A stretch of DNA of 64,000 nucleotides from Actinomycetota bacterium (GCA_046713235.1 JBKKBZ010000101.1:345-64344); one strand, 5' to 3'; numbered from the stretch's first letter, positions 4,687 to 61,459 are shown. Program-made: numbers and translations. Notes: generated by a model not told the origin, from the sequence alone.

Positions 4687-5088
4687 TCAAGCCTGCTGTT
4701 CGACCTCGTAGACTCGGGTCACCGTCAAACCGGCGACCAGGGCAAGCACGGCCGTCGCGAGATGCAGGGCGTTGTACGAGGACGGCAGCTTGGGGTCGTA
4801 CCCGAGAACGTTTCCGAGCGAGGCCCGTGACACTAAGCCCCACACCGTGAGCGCGAGGAAGAGCAGACCGGTGATCTTCAAGATGGCCTTGGCGGCCAGC
4901 TCGCCGGCGAAATACGCAAACAGCACTCCGAGGCCGACCACCCAGTGAATGAGATTGTGAATCCCGCGCATGTCTAAAAGCACCGTCTTGCCGATCTTCA
5001 GCTCGCCGAAGAGCGCCTCGAGGAACGCGATGGCAAGGTAGGCCAGCCCAAGCAGCAGAGCGACGGTCCTGGCGATTCCCATTCTCAT
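4687..5088 (-). CDS. small multi-pass membrane protein (DUF4383-like)
   Basis: 133 aa with four hydrophobic helices and compact coding. Confidence 0.55.
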   Translation of the reverse strand: MRMGIARTVALLLGLAYLAIAFLEALFGELKIGKTVLLDMRGIHNLIHWVVGLGVLFAYFAGELAAKAILKITGLLFLALTVWGLVSRASLGNVLGYDPKLPSSYNALHLATAVLALVAGLTVTRVYEVEQQA

Positions 5089-11682: not shown

Positions 11683-12390
11683 GTGGGGGCGTACGGAACG
11701 ATTCTCGGTGTGTGGGCTCATCCCGACGACGAGACCTATCTATCGGCCGGCGTCATGGCGCAGGCGGTCCACGAGGGTGACCGTGTCGTCTGTGTGACGG
11801 CCACGCGGGGCGAAGAGGGATCCTGGGACGAAGAGCGCTGGCCTCCCGCGGAGATGGGCAAGGTCCGAGAAGCCGAGCTTCTAGAGTGCTTGGCCATCCT
11901 CGGGGTGCGTGAGCATCATTGGCTCGACGTCGTTGACGGGACCTGCGAAAGGCTGACTTTGGAGCAGGGTGTGGCGCTGGTGCAGCCCCTCCTAGCCGAG
12001 GTGCAGCCCGATCTCGTCCTGACCTTCGGTCCCGAAGGCATGACAGATCATGCCGACCACAAGGCCGTGAACTCGTGGACGGGCGAGGCCTTCCGCCGGG
12101 AGGCGAAGCCGGGCTCACGCCTGCTCTACGCCACGTACACCAAGGAATGGGCCGACGAGTTCGTTCCAATCATGAACCGTTTCAACGTCTTCGCGGAAGG
12201 AACTCCCCCGGTCACGCCGCGGGACGAGCTCGAGATCGGCTTCGAGCTTCCGCCGGACTTGCTCGAGCTCAAGATCCGGGGCATCGAGGCGCACGTGAGC
12301 CAGATCGAGGGAATGCTCAAGGCGTTCGGCGAGGACTTCTTCCGCAGAGCAATGGCAGCGGAGTACTTCCGTCTCGGAGACTCCGCTTAA
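11683..12390 (+). CDS. PIG-L/LmbE-family N-acetylglucosaminyl deacetylase
   Basis: GVWAHPDDE zinc-binding motif. Confidence 0.8.
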   Translation: MGAYGTILGVWAHPDDETYLSAGVMAQAVHEGDRVVCVTATRGEEGSWDEERWPPAEMGKVREAELLECLAILGVREHHWLDVVDGTCERLTLEQGVALVQPLLAEVQPDLVLTFGPEGMTDHADHKAVNSWTGEAFRREAKPGSRLLYATYTKEWADEFVPIMNRFNVFAEGTPPVTPRDELEIGFELPPDLLELKIRGIEAHVSQIEGMLKAFGEDFFRRAMAAEYFRLGDSA

Positions 12391-14329: not shown

Positions 14330-14668
14330 ATGGGCATGGAAGCGTATTCGAGGCACCTGATCCGGATGGCGCGACGCCGGTCGGGGCTGACGCAAGAGGC
14401 GCTCGCCGGCCGGGCGGCGACCACGCAGTCGGCGATCTCGGCGTACGAGTCGGGCCGGCGTTCCCCCTCAGTTCAGACACTCGCGCGGATTCTCGCGGCT
14501 GCGGGACTCGAGCTGCGCATGCGCGCGGTGGAGCCGGGCTCGCACGATGCGTCACGCCGCACGGCCGAGGCGCTGCTGCCGGCCGGCCAGCTCGAAGCCT
14601 TCAATGCCGCCGAGGGCCGCAGAGTGGGGGCGGGCGGGCGCCGCCGGGTGCGGGACGGCCGTGGCTGA
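14330..14668 (+). CDS. XRE-family helix-turn-helix DNA-binding protein
   Basis: RSGLTQEALAGRAATTQSAISAYESGRRSPSVQTLARIL HTH_3 signature. Confidence 0.7.
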   Translation: MGMEAYSRHLIRMARRRSGLTQEALAGRAATTQSAISAYESGRRSPSVQTLARILAAAGLELRMRAVEPGSHDASRRTAEALLPAGQLEAFNAAEGRRVGAGGRRRVRDGRG

Positions 14669-15161
14669 TCTCGACATCGCCGGCCTCGTCCGCAGCTTGA
14701 ACGTGCGCGGGGTCCGCTACGTGATCATCGGGGGAGTCGCTGCTTTGGTCCATGACCTGCCCCTGCCGGCCACGGTGGACCTCGACGTAACGCCTGCGCG
14801 TGACGTCGAGAACCTCTCGCGGCTCGCGGAGGTCTTCGATGACCTCGATGCCGGACTGCTGACCGCAGAGCCGGCAGGCGCATGGTTCCCGCGTCACCCG
14901 GTCGAGAAGTGGTCCCAGTACGACACGTTGCACCTGATGACGAACTACGGACCGCTCGACCTTGTGTTTGCGCCCGACGGCGCGCCGCGAGGGTTCGACG
15001 ACCTGATCGACTCCGCGGAGCAGCGTCCCGTCCAAGCCGCTGACGCGACAGCACTCGTCATCTCTGTGTCCATGTGGGAGCGGCTCAAGCACGCGACAGG
15101 CCGGGCGAAGGATCTCGAGCACCTCGACCGGTTCTACGAACAGGGCGATGATCGCACGTAG
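14661..15161 (+). CDS. minimal Pol-beta-superfamily nucleotidyltransferase-fold protein (putative toxin/effector partner of the HTH protein)
   Basis: hGG-x14-DLDV motif (IIGGVAALVHDLPLPATVDLDV). GTG start overlaps the HTH stop by 8 nt (GTGGCTGA). Confidence 0.5.
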   Translation: MADLDIAGLVRSLNVRGVRYVIIGGVAALVHDLPLPATVDLDVTPARDVENLSRLAEVFDDLDAGLLTAEPAGAWFPRHPVEKWSQYDTLHLMTNYGPLDLVFAPDGAPRGFDDLIDSAEQRPVQAADATALVISVSMWERLKHATGRAKDLEHLDRFYEQGDDRT

Positions 15162-19691: not shown

Positions 19692-20611
19692 AGAATGTTC
19701 TTCATGATCGAGGCAACGGCCGGCCCGACGACAACTACGAACAGCGCCGGGAAGATGAACAGGAACATCGGAAAGAGGATCTTGACCGGCAGCTTGGCCG
19801 CCTTCTCCCGCGCCCATTGACGCCGCTTCGCCCGCATCTCTCCGGCCTGAATGCGCAGCACCTTGCTCATCGGCATGCCGAGCGCATCGGCCTGGATCAG
19901 CGCGAGAACGAAGTTCGATACCTCCGGAACCTCGGTGCGGCGCTTGAGGTTCTGCAAGGCCTCCCGGCGCGAGAGCCCCAGCTCCATCTCCCGGAGTGTG
20001 CGATTGAGTTCGAACGCCAGCGTGCTCGTGAAGTGCTGCCCGACGACCTCGATGGCACCTTCCAATCCCACACCTGCCTCGACGGAGATGGCCAGCAGGT
20101 CGAGAACGTCCGGCAGGTCCCGCCGGACCTCGGTCTGCCGGGCTTCCTTCTTACGTTCGGACCACGACACCGGCGCGTATGCGCCCAGGAGCCCAAAGAC
20201 TAGAAGTCCGCGCAGGATGCCGGTTGTGCTCCAGCCCATCAGGAGGCCGAGCAACGTCCCTCCGAGAATGCCGGCGGCAATCGTCACGAGCTGAATGACG
20301 ACGAACTCTTCGGGCCGGAAACGATCGGCGAGCCCCGATGTGATCAGGCGCTTGCGCATCTGATCCAGGTAATTGCGCGGAACCAGCGCGGACACACCCC
20401 CCGATAGCCTGCGGCCCACCGGCTTGAACAGGCGCGCGACGATAGGCTCGGCCAGGCGCTCCTGGTACGCGTCCATGGTGGAAGGACTGCCTTCGAGCTC
20501 CGCCAGCACCGCGCCGGCGTCGATCGACGGCTTTCGCAGCGCGAAGACAACGACCAGCCACGCGCCGAGAAGGGCGCTGCCGCCACCGAGGGCGATCACG
20601 GCGTCAGACAT
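19688..20611 (-). CDS. tadC: type II secretion system F-family inner-membrane protein TadC
   Basis: T2SSF-domain sequence with three TM segments. Overlaps tadB. Confidence 0.85.
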   Translation of the reverse strand: MSDAVIALGGGSALLGAWLVVVFALRKPSIDAGAVLAELEGSPSTMDAYQERLAEPIVARLFKPVGRRLSGGVSALVPRNYLDQMRKRLITSGLADRFRPEEFVVIQLVTIAAGILGGTLLGLLMGWSTTGILRGLLVFGLLGAYAPVSWSERKKEARQTEVRRDLPDVLDLLAISVEAGVGLEGAIEVVGQHFTSTLAFELNRTLREMELGLSRREALQNLKRRTEVPEVSNFVLALIQADALGMPMSKVLRIQAGEMRAKRRQWAREKAAKLPVKILFPMFLFIFPALFVVVVGPAVASIMKNIL

Positions 20612-21554
20612 TGACCTTCGCCATCTTTCGGATCACGCCGATTCCGATGAAGATCGAGATCGTCGCCGCGATCAGCGCGATCAGACCTTTGCCGTGAAAC
20701 AGCGGCTTGATGTACTCGGGATTGAGAACCTGCAACGTCAGAAGCATGAAGAACGGCAACCCGCCGAGAATATTGCCCGACAGGCGGCCCTCTGCCGTGA
20801 GAACGCGCACCTCGCGACGTATCTCCTCACGCGACCGCATGAACTCGGCCAGCGTGGAGAGCAGGTCCGCCAGCTTTCCTCCCACGGTCTGCTGAATCCG
20901 GATGGCGTGGACGGCCCAGCCGAGATCGGTGATGTCGACTCGGTCCGACATACGCTGCAGCGCATCGACGAGCGAGTGCCCCAGCCGGGTCTCGGCCAGA
21001 ACGAGGTCGAACTCTTCACTCAGGGGAGCTTCGCTCTCTTCGATCATCATCTCGACCGAGTGCAGGAAGGTGTGCCCGGCCTCAAGAGACGAGGCCACGA
21101 GCGTGAAGGCGTCGGGGAGCTGCGCCTCGAAGGCTCGCCGGCGGCGCTCGACCTTCGCCTTCACAAGCATCCAGGCAAGCCAGGGAAATACTCCGAGCGC
21201 GAGCATTGCGAGGGCCGGCGACCCGGTAAACAGTCCAATGAATCCGGCACCAAGAATCGAGGCCCCGGCAACCAACAGGACGAACTCCCCCGGCCGCATC
21301 GGCACGCGTCCGCGGGCCAGGGTCACACTGATGCGCTCCGTCATCTTGAGCTGCTCGAGGCCGGCATGAACCGCGGCGATTCCCGACTCCAGCAGCACGG
21401 ACCGGGAAAGGTCCTCGGGCGGAAGTCCTTGCTCGCCGAAAGGCAGTTGGAGGACGGAGGCGATCTCCTCGTCCCGCTCGCGTACGCGCAGGAGCGCACC
21501 GACGACCAGCAGGGCCAACCCTCCGCCGACCGCCAGGGCCGCGATCAGCGTCAC
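20604..21554 (-). CDS. tadB: type II secretion system F-family inner-membrane protein TadB
   Basis: T2SSF domain. GTG start overlaps the cpaF stop (GTGA). The long N-terminal extension in the ORF track was judged spurious. Confidence 0.8.
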   Translation of the reverse strand: MTLIAALAVGGGLALLVVGALLRVRERDEEIASVLQLPFGEQGLPPEDLSRSVLLESGIAAVHAGLEQLKMTERISVTLARGRVPMRPGEFVLLVAGASILGAGFIGLFTGSPALAMLALGVFPWLAWMLVKAKVERRRRAFEAQLPDAFTLVASSLEAGHTFLHSVEMMIEESEAPLSEEFDLVLAETRLGHSLVDALQRMSDRVDITDLGWAVHAIRIQQTVGGKLADLLSTLAEFMRSREEIRREVRVLTAEGRLSGNILGGLPFFMLLTLQVLNPEYIKPLFHGKGLIALIAATISIFIGIGVIRKMAKVNV

Positions 21555-42228: not shown

Positions 42229-42612
42229 GTGACCCTGCACGCGAAGCCGGCCACGCTCGGGCGAAACGAAGAGCTGCGCTTCACGGTAAGCCTCCGCAAC
42301 GGAGGGCCGAGTGCCGTCGGCTTCTATCGAGGCCGCGACTGGGTCGATCTGTGGATCTACCGCGGCGACGAGTTCATCTGGACGAAGAGCAAGGCCGGCG
42401 GCTTCTACACCCGGGAGGCCTTGATCGAGTCTCTCGCGCCGGGCGACAGCCGGGCCGAGGACGTGACGTGGGACCAATCCTCGAACTGCCCTGGGGCTCC
42501 ACCCACGGTGACGGCCGGCCGCTATTTCGCCCGCGCGTCGCTCAAGGTGGAGACGGCGTCGGGAACCGTCACGTGGTGGTCCGAGGCGATCCAGTTCACC
42601 ATCCGCCCATGA
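42229..42612 (+). CDS. beta-sandwich domain protein (BsuPI/intracellular-proteinase-inhibitor-like), possibly C-terminal part of the upstream gene
   Basis: Same frame as 41584-42096 and separated only by TAA at 42094-42096, with an open Pro/Thr-rich linker in between. GTG start. Confidence 0.4.
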   Translation: MTLHAKPATLGRNEELRFTVSLRNGGPSAVGFYRGRDWVDLWIYRGDEFIWTKSKAGGFYTREALIESLAPGDSRAEDVTWDQSSNCPGAPPTVTAGRYFARASLKVETASGTVTWWSEAIQFTIRP

Positions 42613-42674: not shown

Positions 42675-42708
42675 GCATAACGGGTTCGGTTCCAGCCGCA
42701 AGTTATAC
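42675..42708 (-). repeat. attC-11, truncated (about 34 bp) terminal attC-like site
   Basis: gcataac gggttcg gttccagccgcaa gttatac has the arms of the family-A attC with the central region missing. Confidence 0.5.
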
Positions 42709-42721
42709 GGGCCCCTCGAGC

Positions 42722-43273
42722 TCATGCTGGGACCAACCTAACCCACCAATCGCGATTTCGAATAGTGCAGGGCTTGAGATCAGAAAGCGCTTGATAGCCG
42801 GTCGGGTATTGATTGCCGGGCCCGTAGTTCGAGACGTAGCCGATACGACAGTTACCGAGCATGAGTTCCTTGAACGGGTGCTGTGCCTCGTCGAGGTCTA
42901 TGCCGAAGCGGGTTGTCTCAACGAGACAGAGCGTCTTCCCTGAATCGGATTCACTTAGGTACGTGTCGTGTTCGGAGTTTCCCCAGTCGATTGAGCCCTT
43001 GGGACAATCGGGCGCGGGGCCGGGCGTTAGCGTGAAGGCTGCCGAAGGCGCCTGAGTCGGCGTCGTGGATGTCTGGGTGCGAGGACTGGAAGGTCGGCCC
43101 TCGATTCGAGACGATGGACACGCACCGAGTGTTATAGGCAAGAGCCCGACTGCGATCACGGTCCGCCATGTCATGAGCATCTGCACCTCAAGTGAGTTGA
43201 CCCGATGGCCCTCAATAGCAGCTGTGGCCCAGTCCCGAGCATGTCCTTTCGGGCAAGCGAGGCTCACTTTCAA
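42722..43273 (-). CDS. cassette 11: lipoprotein, unknown function
   Basis: MLMTWRTVIAVGLLPITLGAC lipobox. Lower GC. Confidence 0.5.
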   Translation of the reverse strand: MKVSLACPKGHARDWATAAIEGHRVNSLEVQMLMTWRTVIAVGLLPITLGACPSSRIEGRPSSPRTQTSTTPTQAPSAAFTLTPGPAPDCPKGSIDWGNSEHDTYLSESDSGKTLCLVETTRFGIDLDEAQHPFKELMLGNCRIGYVSNYGPGNQYPTGYQALSDLKPCTIRNRDWWVRLVPA

Positions 43274-43290
43274 ATACTAGGCAGGCTCCG

Positions 43291-43365
43291 CCCAACGGTT
43301 TGGCGGCTGAGCAGCCGGGAGCGCGCGCAGCGCGCGAGCGGTCTGTTCCAGTCGCAAGTTAGACG
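43291..43365 (-). repeat. attC-10
   Basis: gcccaac ggtttggcggctgagcagcc ... gttccagtcgcaa gttagac. Confidence 0.7.
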
Positions 43366-43919
43366 GTGGAGATTCCCGCCAACACTTCGCTAATCGCAAG
43401 ATTAGAGTCCTCCAGCCAGACGATGCATCCCTCCGGGTTCTGATCGATTCCCCAGGTCGTGTGTTCAACAAGCTCTCTGGGCACCCAGGCTAGAAGATAG
43501 GGGCTTGGGTAGCGTCGTAGTTCGCGCCGTTCTTCGATCATTGCGACCCAGGTGTCCCAGGGTGGACAGTTATGCGTATCAAAGAAGCCAGCCGATGAGT
43601 CCTGCGCAGCGCCATCAGCGAGCTCGTCATTGGGGAAATAGACCAGCAGGCGTCCAGAGTCTAATGCGCGAGGAACTTCAGTCGAGCGCAACACTTGATG
43701 GCTCCGTAGGACTCCAACATGCCGTACCGCCGAAAAGTAGTCTGCTTCCAGAACCCGCGGACGAGTTTCGTCTCGACGTAAGCATTCCGCCGGATGCGCG
43801 ACATCTACATGCTTCACGCACCAAAGAATCGTTTCGCGAAGTCGAAGCGCTAGCGGATCAAGGGACTCGGAGAGATTCGGCTCGGATCGTCGAATCTTCT
43901 TTGCGAACGACCGCGTCAT
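43359..43919 (-). CDS. cassette 10: hypothetical protein (186 aa)
   Basis: The ORF fills the cassette and its stop lies in the attC box. No family recognised. Confidence 0.5.
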   Translation of the reverse strand: MTRSFAKKIRRSEPNLSESLDPLALRLRETILWCVKHVDVAHPAECLRRDETRPRVLEADYFSAVRHVGVLRSHQVLRSTEVPRALDSGRLLVYFPNDELADGAAQDSSAGFFDTHNCPPWDTWVAMIEERRELRRYPSPYLLAWVPRELVEHTTWGIDQNPEGCIVWLEDSNLAISEVLAGISTV

Positions 43920-43924
43920 GATCC

Positions 43925-43985
43925 GTCTAACGACTTGGGCGCTGACCCGCCGGCGAAGCCGGTCGGGTCCAGCGGCGAGTTCTAC
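43925..43985 (-). repeat. attC-9 (family B, short)
   Basis: gtctaac gacttgggcgctgacccgcc ... gggtccagcggcga gttctac. Confidence 0.65.
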
Positions 43986-43997
43986 GGCCGGGAGTCC

Positions 43998-44210
43998 TCA
44001 AAGCAGCTTCCGAAACTCTTCGATCGTGAGGCCAGCGTCCCGAGCGATTCCACCCATCGTGAGGGCGTTGATTGGGTTCGCGCGCGGAATCGTCAAGATG
44101 CGGCGGCCATCCGACATCACGATGTGCTTCCCCTCGCGAATGACTTCGAAGCCTGCTTTGCGAAGAGCTCGAACCGCACGCTGATGCGAGATGCCGGGAA
44201 TGCTGGGCAT
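43998..44210 (-). CDS. hicA: cassette 9: HicA mRNA-interferase toxin
   Basis: GKHIVMSDGRRILTIPRANPINALTMGGIARDAGLTIEEF is HicA-like. Confidence 0.8.
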   Translation of the reverse strand: MPSIPGISHQRAVRALRKAGFEVIREGKHIVMSDGRRILTIPRANPINALTMGGIARDAGLTIEEFRKLL

Positions 44211-44413
44211 CAGAGGGCGACTTCGATCTCCCGAACTTCCGCTCCTTCGAGCTGCTCGTCGGCGACCGAAAGGTAGGCCTGAATCGCGTCGCGGATGTTC
44301 TCGATAGCCTCGTCCTCATCCTTACCCTGTGACCAGCATCCTGGGAGACCGGGCACGGAGACAGCGACGCCTTCATCCGAACGGTGGAGAGCGATCTTGT
44401 AGCGAACCGTCAT
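44210..44413 (-). CDS. hicB: cassette 9: HicB-like antitoxin (UPF0150)
   Basis: MTVRYKIALHRSDEGVAVSVPGLPGCWSQGKDEDEAIENIRDAI is HicB N-domain-like. Overlaps the hicA start. Confidence 0.75.
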   Translation of the reverse strand: MTVRYKIALHRSDEGVAVSVPGLPGCWSQGKDEDEAIENIRDAIQAYLSVADEQLEGAEVREIEVAL

Positions 44414-44441
44414 ACCCGCATTCTACTCCCGCCGTCCGTCC

Positions 44442-44510
44442 GTTCAACGGCTTGGGAGCTGAGCCGCGCGAGCCCGCAGGGCGAGCGTCGGTTCCAGCCG
44501 CAAGTTGTGC
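44442..44510 (-). repeat. attC-8
   Basis: gttcaac ggcttgggagctgagccgcg ... ggttccagccgcaa gttgtgc. Confidence 0.7.
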
Positions 44511-44571
44511 GGCGACCGATCAGGCGCCTTGGAATTGCACAACGGATTCTCCTCCGGTGACGCGATCGGAC

Positions 44572-45117
44572 TCATGATGCGGTCGGATCACGCGGCTTGT
44601 CCATCGCACTCGCGAGACGCCACGACCCAAGAATCGCTAGCGAGGCACCGCCGACTAGGAGCGCCCACTGCGCGAGCCACCCTGGGTCCGGTCTTCGAGG
44701 GACAGGAGTGCCGGCGCCGAGCACGGACTCGGCCTCCCGAACAGCGGTCGAACCGCGCAGATACTCCGTGCAGAGATTCAGCGGCTGCGGGCTGCCGTTT
44801 GGCTGCGAGACGATGACGTAATCGACCTGCGAGACACTCGTTCCACAGGTGTCCCCACCGCCGCCGGCCACTTTCACTCGCAGATTCGAACGGGCAGGAC
44901 CTTTGAGGACCCGAAGCACGCGGAAGCTCGCGCCGGAAAAGAGATCGATAGAGCGGGGACGCGCGACGTAGACCGCGTCGGCCTCGGTGACCACGTCAGA
45001 GACAGACCCGCGAACGCACGAGCAGGCATGGGCAGGGCTGGAAGAACCTATGAGGAATCCGACGGCTGCCAAGACAGTGAGACTGATGACTCGCGGCCGG
45101 CGCCACATGAGTTTCAC
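44572..45117 (-). CDS. cassette 8: secreted hypothetical protein (C-terminal TM)
   Basis: Signal peptide (ISLTVLAAVGFLIGSSSPAHA) and C-terminal hydrophobic helix. Confidence 0.5.
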   Translation of the reverse strand: MKLMWRRPRVISLTVLAAVGFLIGSSSPAHACSCVRGSVSDVVTEADAVYVARPRSIDLFSGASFRVLRVLKGPARSNLRVKVAGGGGDTCGTSVSQVDYVIVSQPNGSPQPLNLCTEYLRGSTAVREAESVLGAGTPVPRRPDPGWLAQWALLVGGASLAILGSWRLASAMDKPRDPTAS

Positions 45118-45130
45118 GAACTAGCAGTCC

Positions 45131-45206
45131 GCACAACGGACTTGGCGCTCAGCGGCGGCGGCTCGCCGAAGGCCAGCCGTCCGTCCGTTGCAGCGCCTTG
45201 TTAGGC
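45131..45206 (-). repeat. attC-7 (family B)
   Basis: gcacaac ggacttggcgctcagcggcg ... cgttgcagcgcctt gttaggc. Confidence 0.65.
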
Positions 45207-45212
45207 AGCAAG

Positions 45213-45554
45213 TCATGCCGACTCCTTCTGGTATTGGGCATCGAGGTGCTGCGCAAGGTTGAGGACCTCCCGCCACTCCGGTAGCTTGAGTAGATCCGTG
45301 ACGCTTGAGACTCCAGACCCGGAAGCCTCAACAAGCAGCCCATAGAGACGAGCCAGGTCTTTCAACTCGTCCTCGGTGAATGCAGCGAGGAAGGCGGGGC
45401 TCTTCGGGTGGTAGAGGTCAGCACAAAACATGTCGACCAACTCCCCAGGGACATACGCGATCGGGACATTTTGCTCATATTTCAGCTGCCCCGACGGATG
45501 GGCAAGAAGGTGGATGTGCTCCCGCACTGCCCTCCGAATCTCATGAGGTTCCAT
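45213..45554 (-). CDS. cassette 7: hypothetical protein (113 aa)
   Basis: ORF fills the cassette. No family recognised. Confidence 0.45.
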   Translation of the reverse strand: MEPHEIRRAVREHIHLLAHPSGQLKYEQNVPIAYVPGELVDMFCADLYHPKSPAFLAAFTEDELKDLARLYGLLVEASGSGVSSVTDLLKLPEWREVLNLAQHLDAQYQKESA

Positions 45555-45559
45555 GGTCT

Positions 45560-45616
45560 GCCTAACGACTTGGCGCGTCAGCGGCGCGAAGCGTCCGTTG
45601 CACGCGCTTGTTAAAC
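45560..45616 (-). repeat. attC-6 (family B, 57 bp)
   Basis: gcctaac gacttggcgcgtcagcggcg cgaagcgtc cgttgcacgcgctt gttaaac. Confidence 0.65.
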
Positions 45617-46033
45617 CGTGGCGCTGATTCGAATCTCATATCTCGTCCCTGTTCCTAACATGTTTTCTCGAGTCAGGCGCCCAAGTTCCGCGGGGGTTAC
45701 TGCAACGGTCTCCGCTGGTTCAGCAGGATCCCACATGGCCTCGATCCACAAATCAGCCGGCCCCTCGGACGCGAGGGTCTCGAGGGCGATGGCGAGGGGT
45801 TCGAGAATCTCCGATCGCAGGGTCCAATTCGGCGCGTCCCAGTCCACCTCCGCGGGGAGAAAGTCGCCGTCCGTGGACAAGACGCCTCGAATCAAACCCC
45901 GGTCCCTGAAGAATCGGGGCCGGGGATCAACGTGGATTTCCAACCCGCTCTTGCTAGCGAGCCCAGCTGCCCTCTCCAGGGCCTCACGATTCTCGGCACT
46001 CGTGACAGCCCGAATGACGAAACTCAAGCGCAA
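45611..46033 (-). CDS. cassette 6: hypothetical protein (140 aa)
   Basis: Stop codon lies inside the attC box. Confidence 0.45.
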   Translation of the reverse strand: MRLSFVIRAVTSAENREALERAAGLASKSGLEIHVDPRPRFFRDRGLIRGVLSTDGDFLPAEVDWDAPNWTLRSEILEPLAIALETLASEGPADLWIEAMWDPAEPAETVAVTPAELGRLTRENMLGTGTRYEIRISATV

Positions 46034-46043
46034 GCCTTCATCG

Positions 46044-46145
46044 GTTTAACGGTTTGGCGGATGAGCCGCCACGCATCGCGCCCGCACAGCCGAAGATGAA
46101 CGGGCGTCGGGCGCGATCGTGGTCGGTTCCATCCGCAAGTTGTAC
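46044..46145 (-). repeat. attC-5 (family A, about 102 bp)
   Basis: gtttaac ggtttggcggatgagccgcc ... ggttccatccgcaa gttgtac. Confidence 0.7.
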
Positions 46146-46164
46146 GGCACGTTGTTGACCCCCG

Positions 46165-46485
46165 CTACGGTGTCGAGGTCCGAGGCCATCTGAGGATAGC
46201 GCGTGAGACAACTACGACGGCCCCTCCGGCTGCGAGTCCACCTACAGCAACGAGGAAGGCGTACACCATGCGACGGTTGTGTTCAGCGTCGCACTCATCG
46301 TCGTGTCCGGGCACGTGCGGATTCTTTGGAGCGAAGACTATCCCGCACGAAACGATTTGCTCCTCAACATAGCCAGCGCCTTTCGTCTCACCAGCCGGGT
46401 AGGTGTGGTGTGTCGGTACCAAGGCGAGGGCGAGCCCGGACAGTAGACCCATCGCCGCGAGTGCTATTGCTATTCGTCGGTTCAT
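46165..46485 (-). CDS. cassette 5: small signal-peptide/TM protein
   Basis: MNRRIAIALAAMGLLSGLALALVP with a C-terminal TM. Start chosen inside the cassette. Confidence 0.45.
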   Translation of the reverse strand: MNRRIAIALAAMGLLSGLALALVPTHHTYPAGETKGAGYVEEQIVSCGIVFAPKNPHVPGHDDECDAEHNRRMVYAFLVAVGGLAAGGAVVVVSRAILRWPRTSTP

Positions 46486-46599
46486 ATGGGCATCCTCCCC
46501 CAGTGGACAGCGCACGTCCATGACCCTTCGGGCAGTCCGGTGGCGCTCCCCAGGCACCAGAGTCGACGCCGCGTCCCGGGTGTCCGTTTCTATTGGTCC

Positions 46600-46701
46600 G
46601 TACAACGGATTAGCGACTGAGCCGCCGCGTATCGCGCCGGCAAAGCCGAGGTCGAGGGGGCATCGGGCGCGATCGCGGTCGGTTCCAGTCGCAAGTTAGA
46701 C
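46600..46701 (-). repeat. attC-4 (family A, about 102 bp)
   Basis: gtacaac ggattagcgactgagccgcc ... ggttccagtcgcaa gttagac. Confidence 0.7.
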
Positions 46702-46729
46702 GGCGCCCAGTTCAGAGTTCTCGGCGATC

Positions 46730-47404
46730 TCATCTGTCGTCCCTATCCCGTTCAAGAGCCTTCTTTCTTCGACGATACCCAAGGAATGCTGAAATCACAG
46801 CTATCCCTAAGGCCCACGGGAGCCCTCCGACGAGGACTGCTTCTGGCCAAGACACCGGATCAGATGACGTGAATTTGTCCTGCGCCGCACCGGCGAACAG
46901 CAAGCCGACAAACAAACCCAAGGTTATGAGAAGGTCGCGGATTGGATGGTAGGAAGGTATGAACTCAGCGGCGGGCGTGTCCCGATGCTCGGCGGTGCTG
47001 CGTAGTAGTTTTCGGAGATGCTGCAAATCATGTTCAAGGACGCCGATCTCAATTTCAGCCGTCTCGCTCTTGGCAAGCTCGACGACAGCGTCGGGGTTCA
47101 TGCCCCACGCTTCTTTCAATTTGGGTTGTCGTGGGGCCGCTGACGTTGGAACGAGCTTCAGCCGGACATACTTCGAAGGTATCGGGATTCGTGTCCAGAC
47201 GAACACGCCGTTCTCCATCCATCCGATTCCGTTTCGCCAGTGGCGCGCCAAACCTCGTTCCTCGCCGGAGGCGACCCTCAGGCCGCATTCAATCCAGCCT
47301 GGGTGCAACTTCCGAAGCCGAAATCGTCGACGAATCAGGATCCCGAAGAACCCAAATACCGTGACCGGAACGATGATGCCGCCGACGAGCACTAGGGAAT
47401 CCAT
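46730..47404 (-). CDS. cassette 4: multi-pass membrane protein (224 aa)
   Basis: N- and C-terminal TM helices. No family recognised. Confidence 0.5.
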   Translation of the reverse strand: MDSLVLVGGIIVPVTVFGFFGILIRRRFRLRKLHPGWIECGLRVASGEERGLARHWRNGIGWMENGVFVWTRIPIPSKYVRLKLVPTSAAPRQPKLKEAWGMNPDAVVELAKSETAEIEIGVLEHDLQHLRKLLRSTAEHRDTPAAEFIPSYHPIRDLLITLGLFVGLLFAGAAQDKFTSSDPVSWPEAVLVGGLPWALGIAVISAFLGYRRRKKALERDRDDR

Positions 47405-47411
47405 GAAGTCC

Positions 47412-47513
47412 GTCTAATGGATTAGCGGCTGAGCCGCGGCGCGTCGCGCCGCGAAAGCATCGGCTCCGATACGGTCGGGCGCGACCGCCGTCGGTTCCAG
47501 CCGCAAGTTGTAC
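47412..47513 (-). repeat. attC-3 (family A) with degenerate core box (ATTAGAC on array strand instead of GTTAGAC)
   Basis: Plus strand reads gtctaat where the paralogs read gtctaac/gtacaac. The first G of the GTT triplet is replaced by A. Confidence 0.65.
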
Positions 47514-47519
47514 GGCCCA

Positions 47520-47980
47520 TTAATCGGCAGAACTGCCGAGGTAGCGCACATCGTCGAACCCTTCGTGTAGGTCCTTCCAGAAGTCGTCACGCAAGATCTC
47601 AGGATAGACGAGCACGTCCCTGAGCTCATCCTGATTAAACCACCGCGTGGTCCGCTGAAGGTCATTGGGGACATCTCGTTGGGATCCGGGTTGCCGGGAC
47701 TCGTGTCCGTCTGACAAGAAATAGAGCTCAAGCCAGCGAGTATCACGAATCGAATCCCAGAACTCGCGCAAGTAGATAAGCCGGCCGATCTCTACAAGAA
47801 GCCCTGCTTCCTCAAACACCTCGCGCTGGGCGCCGGCGAATAGGGTCGAGTCAGGTTCCTCGAGCCCACCACCGGGCGGTATCCAGTATTCATCACCAGT
47901 CCGCGGGTCGACTTCGCGCACAAGGAGTAACCGGTCTGCGTCGACGATCAGAACCGAAGTCCTAACACCTTGTTTCATTG
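47520..47980 (-). CDS. cassette 3: NUDIX hydrolase
   Basis: Nudix box GGGLEEPDSTLFAGAQREVFEEAGL. Confidence 0.7.
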
Positions 47981-48688
47981 GGTTGGCCGTCCAGCACTCC
48001 GTTCCCAGATTCCTTCCCACTGCACCCATGTGCCCGTCTGCGGCTGTTCACGTAGGGTCGCAACCTCCCGCAGCGCCAACGCGGGCCCGAATCCATCGTG
48101 CGTCAGTGCTTCGAGTTCTTGGCGTGAGAAGAAGTGGATCGGGATCCCATCTTTGGATCCTTCCTGATAACGAATCGCCAGACCGCCCTTCGGGTTCTGG
48201 CTTAGGACCTCATGCCGTCGCCCAATTTCCGTCGAAACTGAGTTCACGCGGAGGAAGAATAGTCCACGTGGACGAAGGAGCCGCTGTGCCTTCTCAAAAT
48301 AAGCGTAGGCTTCGGACTCAGTCCCGTGTTGGAAGACCTGAATCGCAATTAGGTAGTCGAAGTCATGCGGACTGGAGAAGTTAACGAAGTCTACGCACAG
48401 CAACCGGTCGTCCGCGTCGGGCGGCAGCTTCGACCGCAATTGGGCGATGGCTTCCGGTGAGCTGTCGATTCCAACCAGATTCAATCCGGCAGAATGGAGG
48501 GGGACGAAGTTACGGCCGTTCCCGCATCCAACGTACAGCCCTTTCCCCGATTGAACGAGAGGCCGCGACTGGAGGGTGGTGGTGATATCGCGGACGAAGG
48601 GCAAGGGCGGCTCACTCGCATAGCGGCCGAGTCGGTATTCGTTATCCCAGCTCCTTGAAACAGAATCGCGTTTCACGCGTGATCTCAT
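47975..48688 (-). CDS. cassette 3: class I SAM-dependent methyltransferase
   Basis: Motif I LYVGCGNGRN. Stop abuts the NUDIX start with no attC in between. Confidence 0.7.
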   Translation of the reverse strand: MRSRVKRDSVSRSWDNEYRLGRYASEPPLPFVRDITTTLQSRPLVQSGKGLYVGCGNGRNFVPLHSAGLNLVGIDSSPEAIAQLRSKLPPDADDRLLCVDFVNFSSPHDFDYLIAIQVFQHGTESEAYAYFEKAQRLLRPRGLFFLRVNSVSTEIGRRHEVLSQNPKGGLAIRYQEGSKDGIPIHFFSRQELEALTHDGFGPALALREVATLREQPQTGTWVQWEGIWERSAGRPTQ

Positions 48689-48723
48689 CGCCCTTCACCT
48701 ACAGTTGCGGTGGTGGCTGGTCC

Positions 48724-48790
48724 GTACAACGGATTGGCGGCTGAGCCGCGCGAGGCGTAGCCGAGCGGCGGTTCCAGCCGAGAGTTATGC
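48724..48790 (-). repeat. attC-2 (family A, short)
   Basis: gtacaac ggattggcggctgagccgcg ... ggttccagccgaga gttatgc. Confidence 0.7.
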
Positions 48791-49213
48791 CGTGGCGCAA
48801 CCTACCTCCCACCCGAACACGGTAGCGCGCGTGTGAATTGGGTGAATGAGCGCATCGACATCAGATGAAGCGCGCGTGCCGAGCTGGATACCGAGGACAT
48901 CCGTGGCGATCAACTCGAACGAGCGGACCAGCGGCTCAAAGTCGACCTCTGGCGGGTTGTGTGAGTAAGTCACCACGACGACACCACGGCGTTCGACTGC
49001 CCGAAGCTGCACAAGCTTCAAGCAGTCACCGAGCGTGCTCACGTTGCCTGCATAGGGATGCAAGAGGTTCTCCGACCAGTGCTCCGCTGGTTTTCCATTG
49101 TCTCCGAACGGCCGCACAATCTTGAACTCAAGCGCCCAGTGTCCGGGGATGAGGAGATCTGGCTGGCGCATGGTGCGAGCGCGCGCGTACTCCGAATGGC
49201 TCCCGGCAAGCAC
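48785..49213 (-). CDS. cassette 2: hypothetical protein (142 aa)
   Basis: Stop codon within the attC box. Confidence 0.5.
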   Translation of the reverse strand: MLAGSHSEYARARTMRQPDLLIPGHWALEFKIVRPFGDNGKPAEHWSENLLHPYAGNVSTLGDCLKLVQLRAVERRGVVVVTYSHNPPEVDFEPLVRSFELIATDVLGIQLGTRASSDVDALIHPIHTRATVFGWEVGCATA

Positions 49214-49360
49214 ACGGCCGATGCGCGCAACAAGCTGCGGCTCGCCGAATGGACCAGCGCCTGGCTGGAATGCTTTGTGTGCCTCGCCGGACGAGTCGAC
49301 GGCCTTAAGCGCAGCACCGATGCGCGCAATGAGCTCGTTCAGCGTTCACTCCTGGGATCG

Positions 49361-49438
49361 GTATAACGGTCTGGCGGCTGAGCAGCCAGGTAAGCGCGCG
49401 AAGCGCGCGTCCTGGTCTGTTCCAGTCGCGAGTTAAAC
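49361..49438 (-). repeat. attC-1
   Basis: gtataac ggtctggcggctgagcagcc ... gttccagtcgcga gttaaac. Confidence 0.7.
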
Positions 49439-49924
49439 GGCGTCATCGCGCTCCGGGCCTTTCAGTGTTCGACTCTTGATGTAGTCGCAAACCCTATCGG
49501 CTTTGGTTTGTAGGTGGAACCATTCGGCTGCGTTCCACTTCTGCACCGCTACCGCGGTGACCTCTTCGCCATCCGCGCGTCGGATGGTGAGGCCGTAGTA
49601 GCCAGGCTCGCAATCGAGGATTTCTGGCCATGAGATGAGCAGGATGCGAAATGGATTGCGGATGTAGAGGCCCTCCTCGCGGGCCTCGATGTAGGGCACG
49701 ATCGTAATGCGCCAGAGAAGGATGAGCGGACCGGCGATGATTGGTAACGCCAGGAAACCCCAGCCGGGCCATTCTTCTCCGAACCAATCGCCCCATCCCG
49801 GTGAGGTGATCGCCCAGATCATGAGAGCGATGGCGCCGAGGAGGCCCGCGAGGATGACTGCTCCGGCAACTGCGCGTAATGCAAGCGCTGGCCTCCACGG
49901 GAGCGGCTGCTGAGTCGAGGACAT
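49433..49924 (-). CDS. cassette 1: membrane protein with bacterial PH-like (bPH_2/YdbS-like) domain
   Basis: Two TM helices, then a PH-like C-terminus. ATG 13 nt after a GTTAAAC junction box. Stop TAA inside the attC box. Confidence 0.5.
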   Translation of the reverse strand: MSSTQQPLPWRPALALRAVAGAVILAGLLGAIALMIWAITSPGWGDWFGEEWPGWGFLALPIIAGPLILLWRITIVPYIEAREEGLYIRNPFRILLISWPEILDCEPGYYGLTIRRADGEEVTAVAVQKWNAAEWFHLQTKADRVCDYIKSRTLKGPERDDAV

Positions 49925-49943
49925 TCGAACTTGTCCGTTTAAC

Positions 49944-50119
49944 TCTTGTTTCTGCTGACCTGCATAGCGCACATGGCCGCAGGCTAGCACTCGATTCCGT
50001 CGGGAGCCAGACATGGCGGCAGCGCCTATAGCCTGCAGAAACAGCGTATCGGCGGCCCTGCACTCGGCGTGTTATGCCGCCTGCCGGTCGGTATAGCGCG
50101 CGGGTCGGGATAACGTGCA
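49944..50119 (-). other. putative attI region between the intI 3' end and the first cassette junction (GTTAAAC at 49937-49943 on the array strand)
   Basis: A simple junction box with no partner inverted repeat. Contains gttatgc at 50070-50076 and ggataacg motifs that could be integrase-binding repeats. Assignment is by position only. Confidence 0.35.
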
Positions 50120-51136
50120 TCAGAGGCGCCGGAGGGGTCCTGGGCGGTCCAGAGGACTCGAGACGCCCATCGCCCCCCGGTTCAGGACGTGCGTGTAGAT
50201 CATCGTGGTCCGGACGTCGCGGTGGCCGAGGAGTTCCTGGACGGTCCGGATGTCGTAGCCGTCTTCGAGCAGGTGCGTTGCGAAGGAGTGCCGGAAGGTA
50301 TGAGGGCTCACCCGCTTGCTCGAGGAAACCAGCAGGCTCGCGACGCGCACAGCCTTCTGGATCACGGACTCGTGCAGATGATGGCGGTGGCGCAACCCGG
50401 TCTCGGCGTCCCGGTAATGCGACGTCGCCGGGAACACCCATTGCCAGGGCCAGTCGGTTTCCGCGTTGGGGTACTTCCGGCGGAGCGCGGTGGGGAGAGG
50501 CGCTCGACCTAGGCCTTGGCGAAGGTCGGCCTGGTGCTGCCGTTTCACCGAGAGCAGGTGTTCGCTGAGGGACCGCCGCACCGCCCGGGGCAGCATGGTG
50601 ACGCGGTCCCTCCGTCCCTTGCCGTCTCGCACGACGATCTCGCCGCGCTGGAAGTCGAGGTCCTTGATCCGCAGCGAGAGCCCCTCGCCCAGACGGAGTC
50701 CGGTTCCGTACAGCAAGCTCGCAACGAGTCGGGGTGTTCCATCCATCGCCCGAAGAACTGAATCCACCTCTTCGCGCGCGAGCACATCGGGCAGGCGCGC
50801 GGGGCGGCACGCGCGTACCACACCCTCTATTCGATCCAAGGGTTGGTTCAGGACCTGCTCATACAGGAACAGCACCGCCGCGAGCGCTTGGTTCTGTGTG
50901 GAGGCGGAGACCTTCCCTTGGATCGCGAGATGCGACAGGAACGCGTTCACGTGGGACTCGGTGAGATCGCGGGGAGGCTTGCGGTGGAAGGCAAGGTACC
51001 GGCCGATCCAGTGGAGTTAGGCCTTCTCGGTGCGCGGACTGTAGTGCCGCGCGCGCAGCCGCTGAACGACGCGGCCCCTGAGCTCGGGGACATCATCGCG
51101 GGCGACAACACGCAGTCGACCTGCGACCGAATCCAT
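50120..51136 (-). pseudogene. intI: integron integrase IntI, interrupted by in-frame TAA (51017-51019) replacing a conserved Tyr codon
   Basis: Catalytic core intact (R...K...HTFRHSFAT...LGHRDVRTTMIYTHV) and the IntI-specific insert ALRRKYPNAETDWPWQWVFPA...RHRHH is present. The frame upstream of the stop continues as MDSVAGRLRVVARDDVPELRGRVVQRLRARHYSPRTEKA*LHWIGRYLAFH, matching the IntI N-terminus. Confidence 0.8.
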
Positions 51137-51469
51137 GGGCGGATCTTGGGAGCCTCAGTAGGACGCGTCAAGAAGCGGAAGAGTGCGAGAACGCGCCCTG
51201 TGCGCCAAGGGGGAGCACTGACCAGAGCGTGTCGTCGCCGGCTTACGCCTCGACCTCCAAGGTGACGTGCTCGGACAGGATCTCTGCGACACTCGGGCGT
51301 ACACTCATCCTCGCAGGCTCCGGCTCGGGTGCCCCTTGTGGGTCAACTGACCGCTTGGCGGTCTCATACGGAGGGAGCACGCTCTCTCCACTAGATCCCG
51401 CGGCCAGGAGCCCACGCACTCAACCGAAGGACACCAGATCGTGAAAACTACAACTCGTCTGGTCGTTAG

Positions 51470-51554
51470 TGCCCGGGGCAGGTCTCGATCCTGCACGCCC
51501 CCGGAGGGGCAGCGGATTTTAAGTCCGCCGCGTCTGCCGTTTCGCCACCCGGGC
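51470..51554 (-). tRNA. tRNA-Leu (anticodon UAA), long variable arm
   Basis: Manual fold: acceptor GCCCGGG/CCCGGGC, D-arm TGGCGAAACGGCAGACGC, anticodon stem-loop GCGGA-CTTAAAA-TCCGC, long variable arm, T-arm GCAGG-ATCGAGA-CCTGC. T-loop position 54 is A. Confidence 0.75.
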
Positions 51555-51592
51555 CGGCCTCGATGCTACCCGGCGACCCGACCGCCGCGCGG

Positions 51593-53458
51593 CTAGATCG
51601 CGGCGCGGCTGAACTGGGTCTCGTACAGCTCGGTGTACGTGCCGCCGGCGCCGACGAGGTCGGCATGGCGGCCGCGCTCCACGATCCTGCCGCCGTCCAC
51701 CACGAGGATCTCGTCGGCCGCCACGATCGTCGACAGCCGGTGCGCGATCACGATGGACGTTCGGCTCGCCAGCGCATGGCCGAGCGCCCGCTGGATCAAC
51801 GCCTCGGACTCCGAATCCAGATGCGACGTCGCCTCGTCCAGGATCACGATCGCCGCGTCCTTGAGCAGCACCCGCGCGATCGCCAGGAGATGCTTCTCCC
51901 CGCCCGACAGCCGGTAGCCGCGCTCGCCCACCACGGTCCGGTAACCGTCGGGCAGCGACGCGATGAGGTCGTGGATCTGGGCCGCGCTGCACGCCTGGAC
52001 GATCTCCTCGTCGGTCGCCTCCGGCCGCGAGTAGCGCAGGTTGGCGCCGATCGTGTCGTGGAACATGTGCGGATCCTGGGTCACGATCCCGATCGAGGCG
52101 GCCAGCGAAGTCATCGTCACGTCGCGAACGTCCATGCCGTCGATCCGTACTGCGCCCTGCGTGACGTCGTAAATCCGCGGGATCAGCATGGAAATCGTGG
52201 TCTTGCCGGCACCCGAAGGACCCACGAGCGCCACCGTCTCGCCCGGCTCAACCCCGAAGGAAACATCGCGCAGCACCCAATCCGACGGGCGGGATTCCAG
52301 CTCCGTCATGCCCTCCTCCAGCGAGGGAATCGACACCTCGGCACCGGGCGGGTAACGGAACCGCACCCCGTCGAACTCGATCTTTCCGGACGGCCGCTGC
52401 AGCGGCACCGCGCCCTTGCGGTCCCGGATCGGATGCGGGAGATCGAGCACCTCGAAGACCCGTTCGAAGGACACAAACGCCGTCAGCAGATCCACGCGCG
52501 CGTTCGTGAGCTGCGTCAGAGGGCCGTAGAGCTGGGCGATGTACACCGCAAAGGCCGCCACCGTGCCGGCCTGAATGGCTCCGTCGAACACGAGCCTCCC
52601 GCCGAACCAGTACACGACCGCAGTGCCCACAGCGGCCACCAGCCCTAAAATCATGAAGAAACTGCGTGCGAACAGCGCGATCTGAATTCCGATGTCGCGG
52701 AGTCCGCGCGCGCGACCCTGGAAGTCCTCCTTCTCCTGCGACGGCCGGCCGAACAGCTTGACCAGCAGGGCCCCGGCGACGTTGAAGCGCTCGGTCATCA
52801 TGCTGTTCAACCGCGCGTTGAGCTGCATCTGCTCGCGCGTCGCGGACTGAATGCGCTCGCCCAGGCGGCGTGTCGGGAGGATGAACAGCGGGAGCATGGC
52901 CAGCGACAGGACCGTGAGTCTCCACTCCAGAGCCAGCATGACGATCAGCGTCGAGAACACGCTGATGACGTTGGAGGTGACGCTGCCGAGCGTTCCGGTG
53001 ACGGCGTTCTGGGCCCCGATGACGTCGTTGTTGAGCCGGCTGATCAGCGCTCCGGTATGCGTCCGGGTGAAGAACGCCAGCGGCATCCGCTGGACGTGAG
53101 CAAAGAGCGAGGACCGCAGATCAAAGATGAGTCCCTCACCGACCCGCGACGAGAAGAACCGCGCGCCGAGCGACAGCAGGGCCGACCCCAGGGCCACACC
53201 GATCGCCGCGATAGCCAGCCAGTTGAGGCCGGCGGAGTCCCGCTTCGGTAGCACATGGTCGATCAGGCTCCGAAGCAGCAGGGGTGGAACAACGGCAAGA
53301 AACGACCCGGCGACCGTGATCAGCAAGAACAGGATGATCTGCTTCCGGTACGGTTTGGCGAAGCTGAGCGCGCGGGCAATGACCTCACGCGGCAGCTTGC
53401 GGCCCTTGACATCGAGACGCGAACCGAACGGCCCCCGGCCGGCATGTATTGGGAACAT
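51593..53458 (-). CDS. ABC transporter, fused permease + ATPase (exporter, MsbA-like)
   Basis: Six-TM domain, then Walker A GPSGAGKTT, signature LSGGEKHLLAIARVLL and Walker B ILDEATS. Confidence 0.85.
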   Translation of the reverse strand: MFPIHAGRGPFGSRLDVKGRKLPREVIARALSFAKPYRKQIILFLLITVAGSFLAVVPPLLLRSLIDHVLPKRDSAGLNWLAIAAIGVALGSALLSLGARFFSSRVGEGLIFDLRSSLFAHVQRMPLAFFTRTHTGALISRLNNDVIGAQNAVTGTLGSVTSNVISVFSTLIVMLALEWRLTVLSLAMLPLFILPTRRLGERIQSATREQMQLNARLNSMMTERFNVAGALLVKLFGRPSQEKEDFQGRARGLRDIGIQIALFARSFFMILGLVAAVGTAVVYWFGGRLVFDGAIQAGTVAAFAVYIAQLYGPLTQLTNARVDLLTAFVSFERVFEVLDLPHPIRDRKGAVPLQRPSGKIEFDGVRFRYPPGAEVSIPSLEEGMTELESRPSDWVLRDVSFGVEPGETVALVGPSGAGKTTISMLIPRIYDVTQGAVRIDGMDVRDVTMTSLAASIGIVTQDPHMFHDTIGANLRYSRPEATDEEIVQACSAAQIHDLIASLPDGYRTVVGERGYRLSGGEKHLLAIARVLLKDAAIVILDEATSHLDSESEALIQRALGHALASRTSIVIAHRLSTIVAADEILVVDGGRIVERGRHADLVGAGGTYTELYETQFSRAAI

Positions 53459-59756: not shown

Positions 59757-61459
<1,703 letters not shown>

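Follow-up and report, generated by a model that had tools for sequence, protein, structure and literature searches.

At positions 42675-51191 on the minus strand of a 64,000-nucleotide stretch of DNA from an Actinomycetota bacterium (GCA_046713235.1, JBKKBZ010000101.1:345-64344) lies an integron, composed of the integrase gene intI, an attI region and 11 gene cassettes with ten complete attC sites and one truncated site. This whole 64 kb stretch, in the following called the window, is the sequence that was searched; it belongs to a 66,743-bp contig of a draft or metagenome-assembled genome (MAG), not to a complete genome. Following the minus strand from high to low coordinates, a tRNA-Leu(TAA) gene is succeeded by intI, a 180-bp non-coding stretch and 13 co-oriented small open reading frames (ORFs) that extend down to position 42722. 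Between these ORFs lie ten imperfect inverted repeats, each 57-102 nt long, and an eleventh, truncated repeat is found at 42675-42708. The G+C content drops from 65-70% in the flanks to 58-61% over 43-50 kb. The integron is flanked, on a single contig, by genes for enolase, a Ppx/GppA protein, an ABC transporter and the tRNA-Leu at one end and by thioesterase and acyl-CoA dehydrogenase genes at the other, so that housekeeping genes lie on both sides, as in the chromosomal setting of a sedentary integron.

Integron integrases are tyrosine recombinases with an integron-specific insert that bind the folded bottom strand of attC by its structure, that is by R and L boxes and extrahelical bases. 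Recombination between attC and attI inserts a circular cassette at the G|TT of attI, recombination between two attC sites excises it, and the cassettes are mostly promoterless single ORFs that are transcribed from upstream. We read the element, with a probability of about 0.9, as a sedentary chromosomal integron of the inverted-integrase layout in an uncultured Actinomycetota bacterium, intI, all cassette ORFs and the top strands of the attC sites being situated on the minus strand. Its function, including the presumed recombination activity and the putative promoters, is deduced from the sequence. The cassettes could be transcribed from a promoter in or near attI or by read-through from intI, which lies upstream on the same strand. 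An earlier note on this DNA had already proposed a chromosomal integron with 11 cassettes in an actinobacterial-type genome; this proposal is borne out by the presence of intI, attI and attC, by the housekeeping flanks and by matches named Actinomycetota, and the count of 11 holds as well, with two cassettes containing two genes and the last one ending in half an attC site. Overlooked at that time were the co-directional arrangement of intI and cassettes and the origin of the sequence from a draft contig instead of a complete genome.

The integrase gene and the attI region

The intI gene (50120-51136, minus strand) comprises 338 codons and is interrupted by an in-frame TAA at 51017-51019 (codon 40). 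When this stop is read as tyrosine, the product matches the model TIGR02249 'integron integrase' with 424.3 bits, well above the cutoff of 265, and stays far below the cutoffs of the XerC, XerD and XerA models. It contains a SAM-like N-terminal domain (PF13495) and the catalytic domain PF00589, and residues 25-331 align with VchIntIA of Vibrio cholerae (2a3v; E 7.9e-82). The alignment includes the IntI-specific insert (LPTALRRKYPNAETDWPWQWVFPA...) with one single-residue gap, and each of the catalytic residues R, K, H, R, H and Y has its conserved counterpart in the alignment. The gene product is thus a tyrosine recombinase with the additional domain that defines the IntI family, despite the one in-frame stop. 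Homologues number in the thousands, many of them named 'integron integrase' by their sources. The earlier note had placed an IntI-type tyrosine recombinase at one end of the array, which proved right, but it had missed the stop codon.

How is this stop codon to be understood? In its context (...RTEKA*LHWIGRY...) all of 19 aligned homologues have a tyrosine at this position (alignment A3). The longest intact ORF spans 50120-50950, starts at an internal GTG and encodes 276 residues, a product that is devoid of a large part of the N-terminal DNA-binding domain; it is this product (P0001) that a public protein collection holds for the contig. Probably, intI has been inactivated recently and is a pseudogene, or else the stop is an artefact of assembly or consensus calling. 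Since only one nonsense codon is found and the catalytic residues and the remaining frame are intact, an inactivation of the platform would probably be a recent event. The array would now be frozen, except if an IntI from elsewhere worked on it in trans or if the stop were such an artefact. The strongest alternative to our reading takes the latter route and holds that the integron is fully functional, IntI being full-length and the TAA either an error of sequencing, assembly or consensus calling or an allele carried by a minority of the sampled population. The codon is a single base away from TAC or TAT, the conserved start is intact along with the frame and catalytic residues, the attC sites are well preserved, and the sequence comes from a metagenome-type contig. 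However, TAA is the base call in the record, the public protein set has only the 276-residue P0001, and inactivated intI genes beside cassette arrays are known from the literature (PMC4889954), so that we consider a fully functional integron rather unlikely, albeit the least unlikely of the alternatives.

The region directly upstream of intI (51137-51191, minus strand) is also conserved in the 1.7-kb contig L084, which is the closest relative (83-85% identity in IntI) and shares homology with the window from about 51191 onward. This region contains a candidate intI promoter, TTGACG (51166-51171) and CAAGAT (51143-51148) separated by 17 nt on the minus strand. The pattern TTGAC(G/T)-N17-CA(A/C)(G/C)AT is kept in L084 (about 145-176), and in either locus 6 nt lie between its end and the ATG of intI. 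From such a promoter the intI transcript would be leaderless or near-leaderless, starting at or near the ATG, and leaderless mRNAs are common in Actinobacteria. A LexA-type box (GAAC-N4-GTTC) was not found upstream of intI.

The attI region occupies 49937-50119 (minus strand), with the crossover core G|TTAAAC at 49937-49943. The alignment between the window and L084, at 77% nucleotide identity, extends from about 51191, which is 55 bp upstream of the intI start, to about 180 bp past its stop and ends at AAACAAGAGTTAA / AAACAAGAG|TTAA, beyond which the two sequences are unrelated. A core (A/G)GGAG|TTRRRY is also found downstream of intI in three further loci, L001 (GCA_041658565.1), L002 (GCA_040905475.1) and L085, a contig from forest soil, and the core is thus conserved in five loci, the window included. 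Because of the end of the L084 homology and the core shared among the relatives, the crossover of the presumed recombination site was placed at the G|TT of GTTAAAC, with the consequence that the first cassette ORF now begins at the ATG at 49924. Two direct repeats precede the core, GTTATCCCGACC (50103-50114) and GCTATACCGACC (50086-50097), both of which L084 retains and L002 still shows in recognisable form. They may serve as accessory IntI-binding sites in the way that DR1 and DR2 do in attI1. In the relatives the core is preceded by a Shine-Dalgarno-like AGGAG (L001 about 4896, L002 about 11158, L085 about 11190), the window having AAGAG instead (49937-49948), and the start codon of the relatives' first cassette follows 10-20 nt downstream of AGGAG|TTRRRY; judging from this spacing, the first cassette may obtain a ribosome-binding site from attI.

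The attC sites and the cassettes

The ten complete attC sites, all on the minus strand, are a1 (49361-49438), a2 (48724-48790), a3 (47412-47513), a4 (46600-46701), a5 (46044-46145), a6 (45560-45616), a7 (45131-45206), a8 (44442-44510), a9 (43925-43985) and a10 (43290-43364). On the cassette strand their boxes read R'' = G[TC]NNAAC and R' = GTTRNRC, with ATTAGAC in a3 as the single exception. The bottom strand, which is the plus strand of the window, folds in all of them into a common structure, in which the R boxes pair as AAC/GTT and an asymmetric unpaired spacer of 6 nt versus 2 nt is followed by a stem of 7 bp and one of 5 bp, with a single bulged base, usually C, between them; a bulged T then separates the second stem from more stem and a variable terminal loop. 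Both single-base bulges are on the R''/L'' arm, in agreement with the extrahelical bases on the left arm that the earlier note had described. Folding energies compared with shuffled sequences give z-scores of -1.9 to -6.3, and for eight of the ten sites folding is more favourable on the bottom than on the top strand. When the ten sites are aligned, 96.6% of the cells are paired, versus 82% in shuffles and 23-44% with slid partners, and compensatory changes occur in 8 of 18 pairs; none of 500 shuffles matches the observed values. One pair is G·T in nine of the ten sites, where the top strand would give an A·C mismatch, which favours folding of the bottom strand. Boxes, bottom-strand fold and a position of one per cassette are thus found together for ten sites.

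Two covariance models were used, R1, trained on the sites of the window, and R2, built from 46 attC sites of ten other intI-linked loci, none of them from the window. Scanning the window with the filters off, R2 picks out precisely these ten complete sites, at 43.5-62.8 bits (E 3e-12 to 8e-8). The array ends in the truncated site a11 (42675-42708, minus strand), which consists of the R''-L'' half followed directly by GTTATGC, with no complementary arm; it scores 18.3 bits with R1 and 18.6 bits with R2, the inner part of the model being deleted. Cassette 11 is therefore no longer excisable by recombination between attC sites. The earlier claim of an attC-like repeat after every cassette consequently stands for the ten complete sites but not for this last one, whose truncation had gone unnoticed.

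The mean column identity of the ten sites is 61%, and two sequence subtypes can be discerned, most sites of the window being of the type ...CTGGAACCGAC... and a6 and a7 of the type ...TGCAACGGAC.... The second type is dominant in L001, L002, L084 and L085, and a6 and a7 are the top scorers with R2. The cumulative GC skew of the window (1-64000) declines steadily, to -0.85 over 64 one-kb windows; if this weak signal reflected the direction of replication, the attC bottom strands, on the plus strand, would be on the leading-strand template, the orientation reported for large sedentary integrons, albeit the signal is too weak to rely on.

Bounded at the G|TT, the 11 cassettes measure 429-1312 bp. 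Two of them (C3 and C9) carry two genes each, and in four (C1, C2, C6 and C10) the stop codon lies inside R'', as the earlier note had stated for several. The G+C content at third codon positions (GC3) is 0.57-0.71 in the cassette ORFs, versus 0.72-0.88 in the backbone and a backbone-like 0.81 in intI, a contrast that fits an integrase long resident in the genome and a cargo drawn from a wider pool. Also in agreement with the earlier note, most cassette proteins are without recognisable family: C4-C8, C10 and C11 match no family above threshold, and several of their products resemble membrane proteins, secreted proteins or lipoproteins.

Cassette 1 (49367-49942, minus strand, as are all that follow) encodes a membrane protein of 163 residues with a bacterial PH domain (bPH_6; ORF 49433-49924; PF10756, 23.8 bits), and its site a1 scores 71.1 bits with R1 and 56.4 bits with R2. 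Cassette 2 (48730-49366; a2, R1 72.1 and R2 45.5 bits) contains a member of an uncharacterised family with homology from 48785 to about 49341 and a PD...ExK-like motif. This family has 276 cluster representatives in a library of 1.84 billion proteins, with homologues of about 190-200 residues, and has no match in Pfam or NCBIfam; its conserved RxPDLLIP...ALEFKIVRPFGDN resembles what we take to be the motif of PD-(D/E)xK nucleases. A tblastn search with the homologues extends in frame through what had looked like a spacer. In the recorded sequence the homologous frame offers no start codon (ATG, GTG or TTG) ahead of 49213, and the gene is therefore either frameshifted at its 5' end or initiated at CTG. 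A 7-bp tandem duplication (TGAACGC/TGAACGA, 49335-49348 on the minus strand) directly after an AGGAG disturbs this 5' end; removal of one copy yields GTG-AAC-GAG..., that is MNELIARIG..., which agrees with the N-termini of the homologues.

Cassette 3 (47418-48729; a3, R1 73.8 and R2 43.5 bits, R' = ATTAGAC) harbours an S-adenosylmethionine-dependent methyltransferase (47975-48688; Pfam Methyltransf_25/12/11) and a NUDIX hydrolase (47520-48029); the two genes have 55 nt in common, and no attC separates them. PADLOC, run on ten cassette proteins, returned only a generic methyltransferase-domain match to this cassette, and no defence system is claimed. In L042, a locus from a Thiobacillus MAG, intI is directly followed by a NUDIX homologue (4385-4831). 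Cassette 4 (46606-47417; a4, R1 75.0 and R2 50.4 bits) encodes a predicted membrane protein of 224 residues (46730-47404) with a sub-threshold match to DUF2550 only, and cassette 5 (46050-46605; a5, R1 73.7 and R2 48.3 bits) a small membrane protein (46165 to about 46488) with no family match.

Without a family match are likewise the products of cassette 6 (45566-46049), a protein of 140 residues (45611-46033) followed by the short, 57-nt site a6 of the second type (R1 57.2 and R2 62.8 bits); of cassette 7 (45137-45565; a7, R1 60.6 and R2 61.1 bits), with 113 residues (45213-45554); of cassette 8 (44448-45136; a8, R1 73.5 and R2 45.1 bits), with 181 residues and an N-terminal signal or membrane segment (44572-45117); and of cassette 10 (43296-43930; a10, R1 77.9 and R2 57.7 bits), with 186 residues (43359-43919). 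Between the latter two, cassette 9 (43931-44447; a9, R1 66.6 and R2 51.1 bits) contains a toxin-antitoxin pair, HicB (44210-44413) and HicA (43998-44210; PF15919, PF07927), which could stabilise the array. Cassette 11 (42675-43295) encodes a putative lipoprotein (42722-43273) and ends in a11. The next gene (42229-42612, plus strand) is convergent, about 60 bp away from the end of the array and backbone-like with a GC3 of 0.87.

Relatives of the NUDIX, HicB and HicA proteins occur at intI-linked loci of other phyla, those of HicB and HicA at L008 and L077. In the Acidobacteriota locus L008 two pairs of attC sites with identical scores are found about 5.66 kb apart (14470-15071 and 20132-20732), each pair followed by a HicB-like ORF, which suggests that a block of cassettes may have been duplicated in tandem within that array.

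Relatives, genomic setting and competing explanations

Several IntI proteins with 67-73% identity to that of the window (P0003, P0030, P0040) come from MAGs labelled Actinomycetota by NCBI ('integron integrase [Actinomycetota bacterium]'), and on the contigs of these homologues intI is followed by 3-6 attC sites that belong to the same family. In L085, six strong and two weak attC matches were found, and intI has thyX-dapA-ftsK-pgsA-cinA as neighbours, an order that we take to be typical of Actinobacteria. L001, L002, L085 and L084 resemble the window in their IntI (67-85% identical), the attI core, the attC family (34-58 bits with R1) and the co-directional layout; they differ from it in cassette contents and neighbourhoods and in that their intI is intact. 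L002 and L003 were compared for cassette turnover and turned out to be identical in sequence, so that none is visible. A search of genome contigs by IntI alignment yielded at least 80 more distant loci (51-62% identity), the nearest relatives lying outside this list; among the 80 listed, the attC matches are downstream of intI and on the matching strand except in L030 and L049, where intI and array diverge in the classical manner.

A neighbour-joining tree with bootstrap of 33 IntI proteins, rough and with a taxon sampling biased to named matches, groups the window with L084 at 100% and places both inside a clade with the Actinomycetota-labelled proteins at 94%. This clade also holds single proteins labelled Acidobacteria, Armatimonadota and Planctomycetota. 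The IntI proteins of Coriobacteriia MAGs (L021, L024, L047 and L053, with attC downstream) form a separate clade, which points to the presence of integrons in the phylum Actinomycetota a second, independent time; because of this separation the phylum would have acquired integrons at least twice.

What is known about the host and the site of the integron? The enolase (60176-61450) has its nearest relatives at 75-79% identity, and its named top matches are MAGs of Actinomycetota or Actinobacteria, save one Acidobacteria-labelled match near the bottom of the list. For the ABC transporter abutting the tRNA-Leu gene the named matches are solely Actinomycetota and Acidimicrobiia. By these matches the host is assigned to the uncultured Actinomycetota. 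The tRNA-Leu(TAA) gene (51469-51554, minus strand), found by ARAGORN and matching the Rfam tRNA model with 51.8 bits, is a chromosomal landmark upstream of the integron; it was the sole match of an Rfam scan of the window, Rfam containing no attC family. A small ORF in the gap between the tRNA gene and intI (51243-51419) was considered as a transposase N-terminus and dropped, having no match in Pfam and no plasmid match by tblastn.

The one syntenic relative, L086, a 39-kb contig from the Joint Genome Institute (JGI), is collinear with the window from enolase over the ABC transporter to tRNA-Leu(TAA), at 67-90% nucleotide identity. Its tRNA-Leu gene (12084-12170) is 89.7% identical to that of the window, homology ceases exactly at the 3' end of the tRNA, and neither intI nor attC is found on this contig. 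The integron thus sits at a break of synteny beside a tRNA gene, that is at the boundary of a variable region. This arrangement would also be expected if the element were a recent arrival, either a genomic island inserted by the tRNA-Leu gene or a mis-assembly onto an actinobacterial backbone, and the G+C content and GC3 of the cassettes, which are lower than those of the backbone, and the different neighbourhoods of the related integrons could be cited in favour as well. A low G+C content is, however, expected of cassettes in any integron, and the GC3 of intI matches the backbone, whose genes flank the array on both sides on one contig. Furthermore, no transposase, transposition or conjugation gene or second integrase was found near the integron in the window, nor does a direct repeat of the tRNA-Leu 3' end elsewhere in the window mark a tRNA-targeted island, and the IntI belongs to the 94% clade of proteins from Actinomycetota-labelled MAGs with the same attI core and attC type. 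A recent arrival is for these reasons improbable, clearly more so than an error at codon 40.

That the repeats are a lineage-specific family of repetitive extragenic palindromic (REP) elements or miniature inverted-repeat transposable elements (MITE) resembling attC, and the recombinase an ordinary Xer-like enzyme, is suggested by little more than their GC-rich, palindromic and intergenic nature, which REP elements share, and can be set aside, within the sequence covered, as having a negligible probability, since the repeats have a single orientation, are present once per cassette and begin directly after intI, the same type follows intI homologues in several phyla, and the recombinase passes the integron-integrase model and not those of XerC and XerD. 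Dispersed copies, which the earlier note had named as the observation that would speak for such a family, were not found: besides the ten sites and a11, R2 detects nothing above 16 bits on either strand of the 64 kb, and R1 likewise finds no copies outside the array in the window and gives no match over 50 kb of related, intI-free actinobacterial contigs. In other genomes, matches to R1 are located solely downstream of intI homologues and nearly always on the same relative strand.

For the reading as a sedentary chromosomal integron, several observations have to be weighed on the other side. The nonsense codon could mean that the element is a relic. With 11 cassettes, that is ten complete attC sites and a truncated one, the array is at the lower edge for a sedentary chromosomal integron, for which Neron reportedly suggested more than 10 attC sites in 2022. 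Conservation at the same locus, a further mark of sedentary integrons, was not found; the integron is missing from L086, the sole syntenic relative, related integrons reside in other neighbourhoods, and long-term vertical inheritance at this locus is thus not apparent. Moreover, the training sites of R2 were picked by R1, and therefore the two models are not fully independent. A scan of 49800-51600 for sigma-70 promoters and terminators found none, such scans capturing actinobacterial promoters poorly. Finally, the host assignment is based on source names of homologues and not on a marker-gene phylogeny.

Comparison with known integrons and significance

In 2007 Boucher reportedly described a group of inverted integron-integrases in Treponema and other non-proteobacterial lineages. 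The layout is also known from other work (PMC4889954; PMC13323075). Sedentary integrons of this group resemble that of the window in having intI and the cassettes with their attC sites on the same strand, a chromosomal location, a cargo mostly of unknown function with toxin-antitoxin genes, and attC sites that could be called fairly homogeneous, and most of the related loci retrieved here are likewise co-directional. The window differs from the group in its Actinomycetota host, the modest array of 11 cassettes, the nonsense codon in intI and the truncated terminal attC. With the superintegron of V. cholerae it shares the aligned IntI, including insert and catalytic residues, and attC sites that form bottom-strand hairpins with R and L boxes and bulges. 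The V. cholerae array is much larger, and its intI is oriented divergently from it. Compared with the V. cholerae repeats by description, not base by base, the attC sites of the window have an asymmetric spacer of 6 versus 2 nt and a bulged C and T five bp apart.

If the stop codon is real, the array may at present be, by comparison, functionally in the state of clusters of attC sites lacking integrases (CALINs) that have an intI pseudogene. In the survey of Cury et al., 15 of 279 CALINs had an intI pseudogene next to them (PMC4889954). Unlike these, the window has an intI that is complete but for one codon and an intact attI, and its remaining 276-residue ORF would probably still match integrase profiles.

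How unusual is an integron in this phylum? Surveys of complete genomes counted no complete integron, one In0 and few CALINs in Actinobacteria (PMC9024848; PMC4889954), which made up about 10% of the complete genomes surveyed, and the gap was termed intriguing (PMC9024848; PMC4889954). The earlier note's statement that integrons are essentially unreported from complete actinobacterial genomes is therefore correct as worded (PMC9024848), but the novelty it implied was overstated, as a 2021 review counts Actinobacteriota among the integron-bearing phyla (PMC8618304) and NCBI labels of MAG proteins already combine the two terms. The element is thus a genuine integron of a known kind and layout in a rarely reported host phylum, and not unprecedented.

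It could be imagined that an uncultured lineage of Actinomycetota maintains its own family of chromosomal integrons, with a co-directional intI, an attI of the type AGGAG|TTRRRY with upstream direct repeats and lineage-typical attC sites, and that the 'absence' of integrons from Actinobacteria is a sampling artefact of cultured, complete genomes instead of a biological incompatibility; on the comparisons made here we hold the chances for and against this to be evenly balanced. No new mechanism is revealed, and public MAGs already list such proteins under the name integron integrase. Nevertheless, this locus, in which every part of an integron can be recognised on one contig, and the related loci that share its attI and attC design show that integrons are present on the chromosomes of at least some uncultured actinobacteria. 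They point to a small clade of these elements in uncultured Actinomycetota, and they provide a concrete and well-delimited set of IntI, attI and attC for testing integron function in the phylum. If such a lineage-owned family exists, it could be used as a native system to see if attC sites fold and IntI recombines them in high-GC Gram-positive cells.

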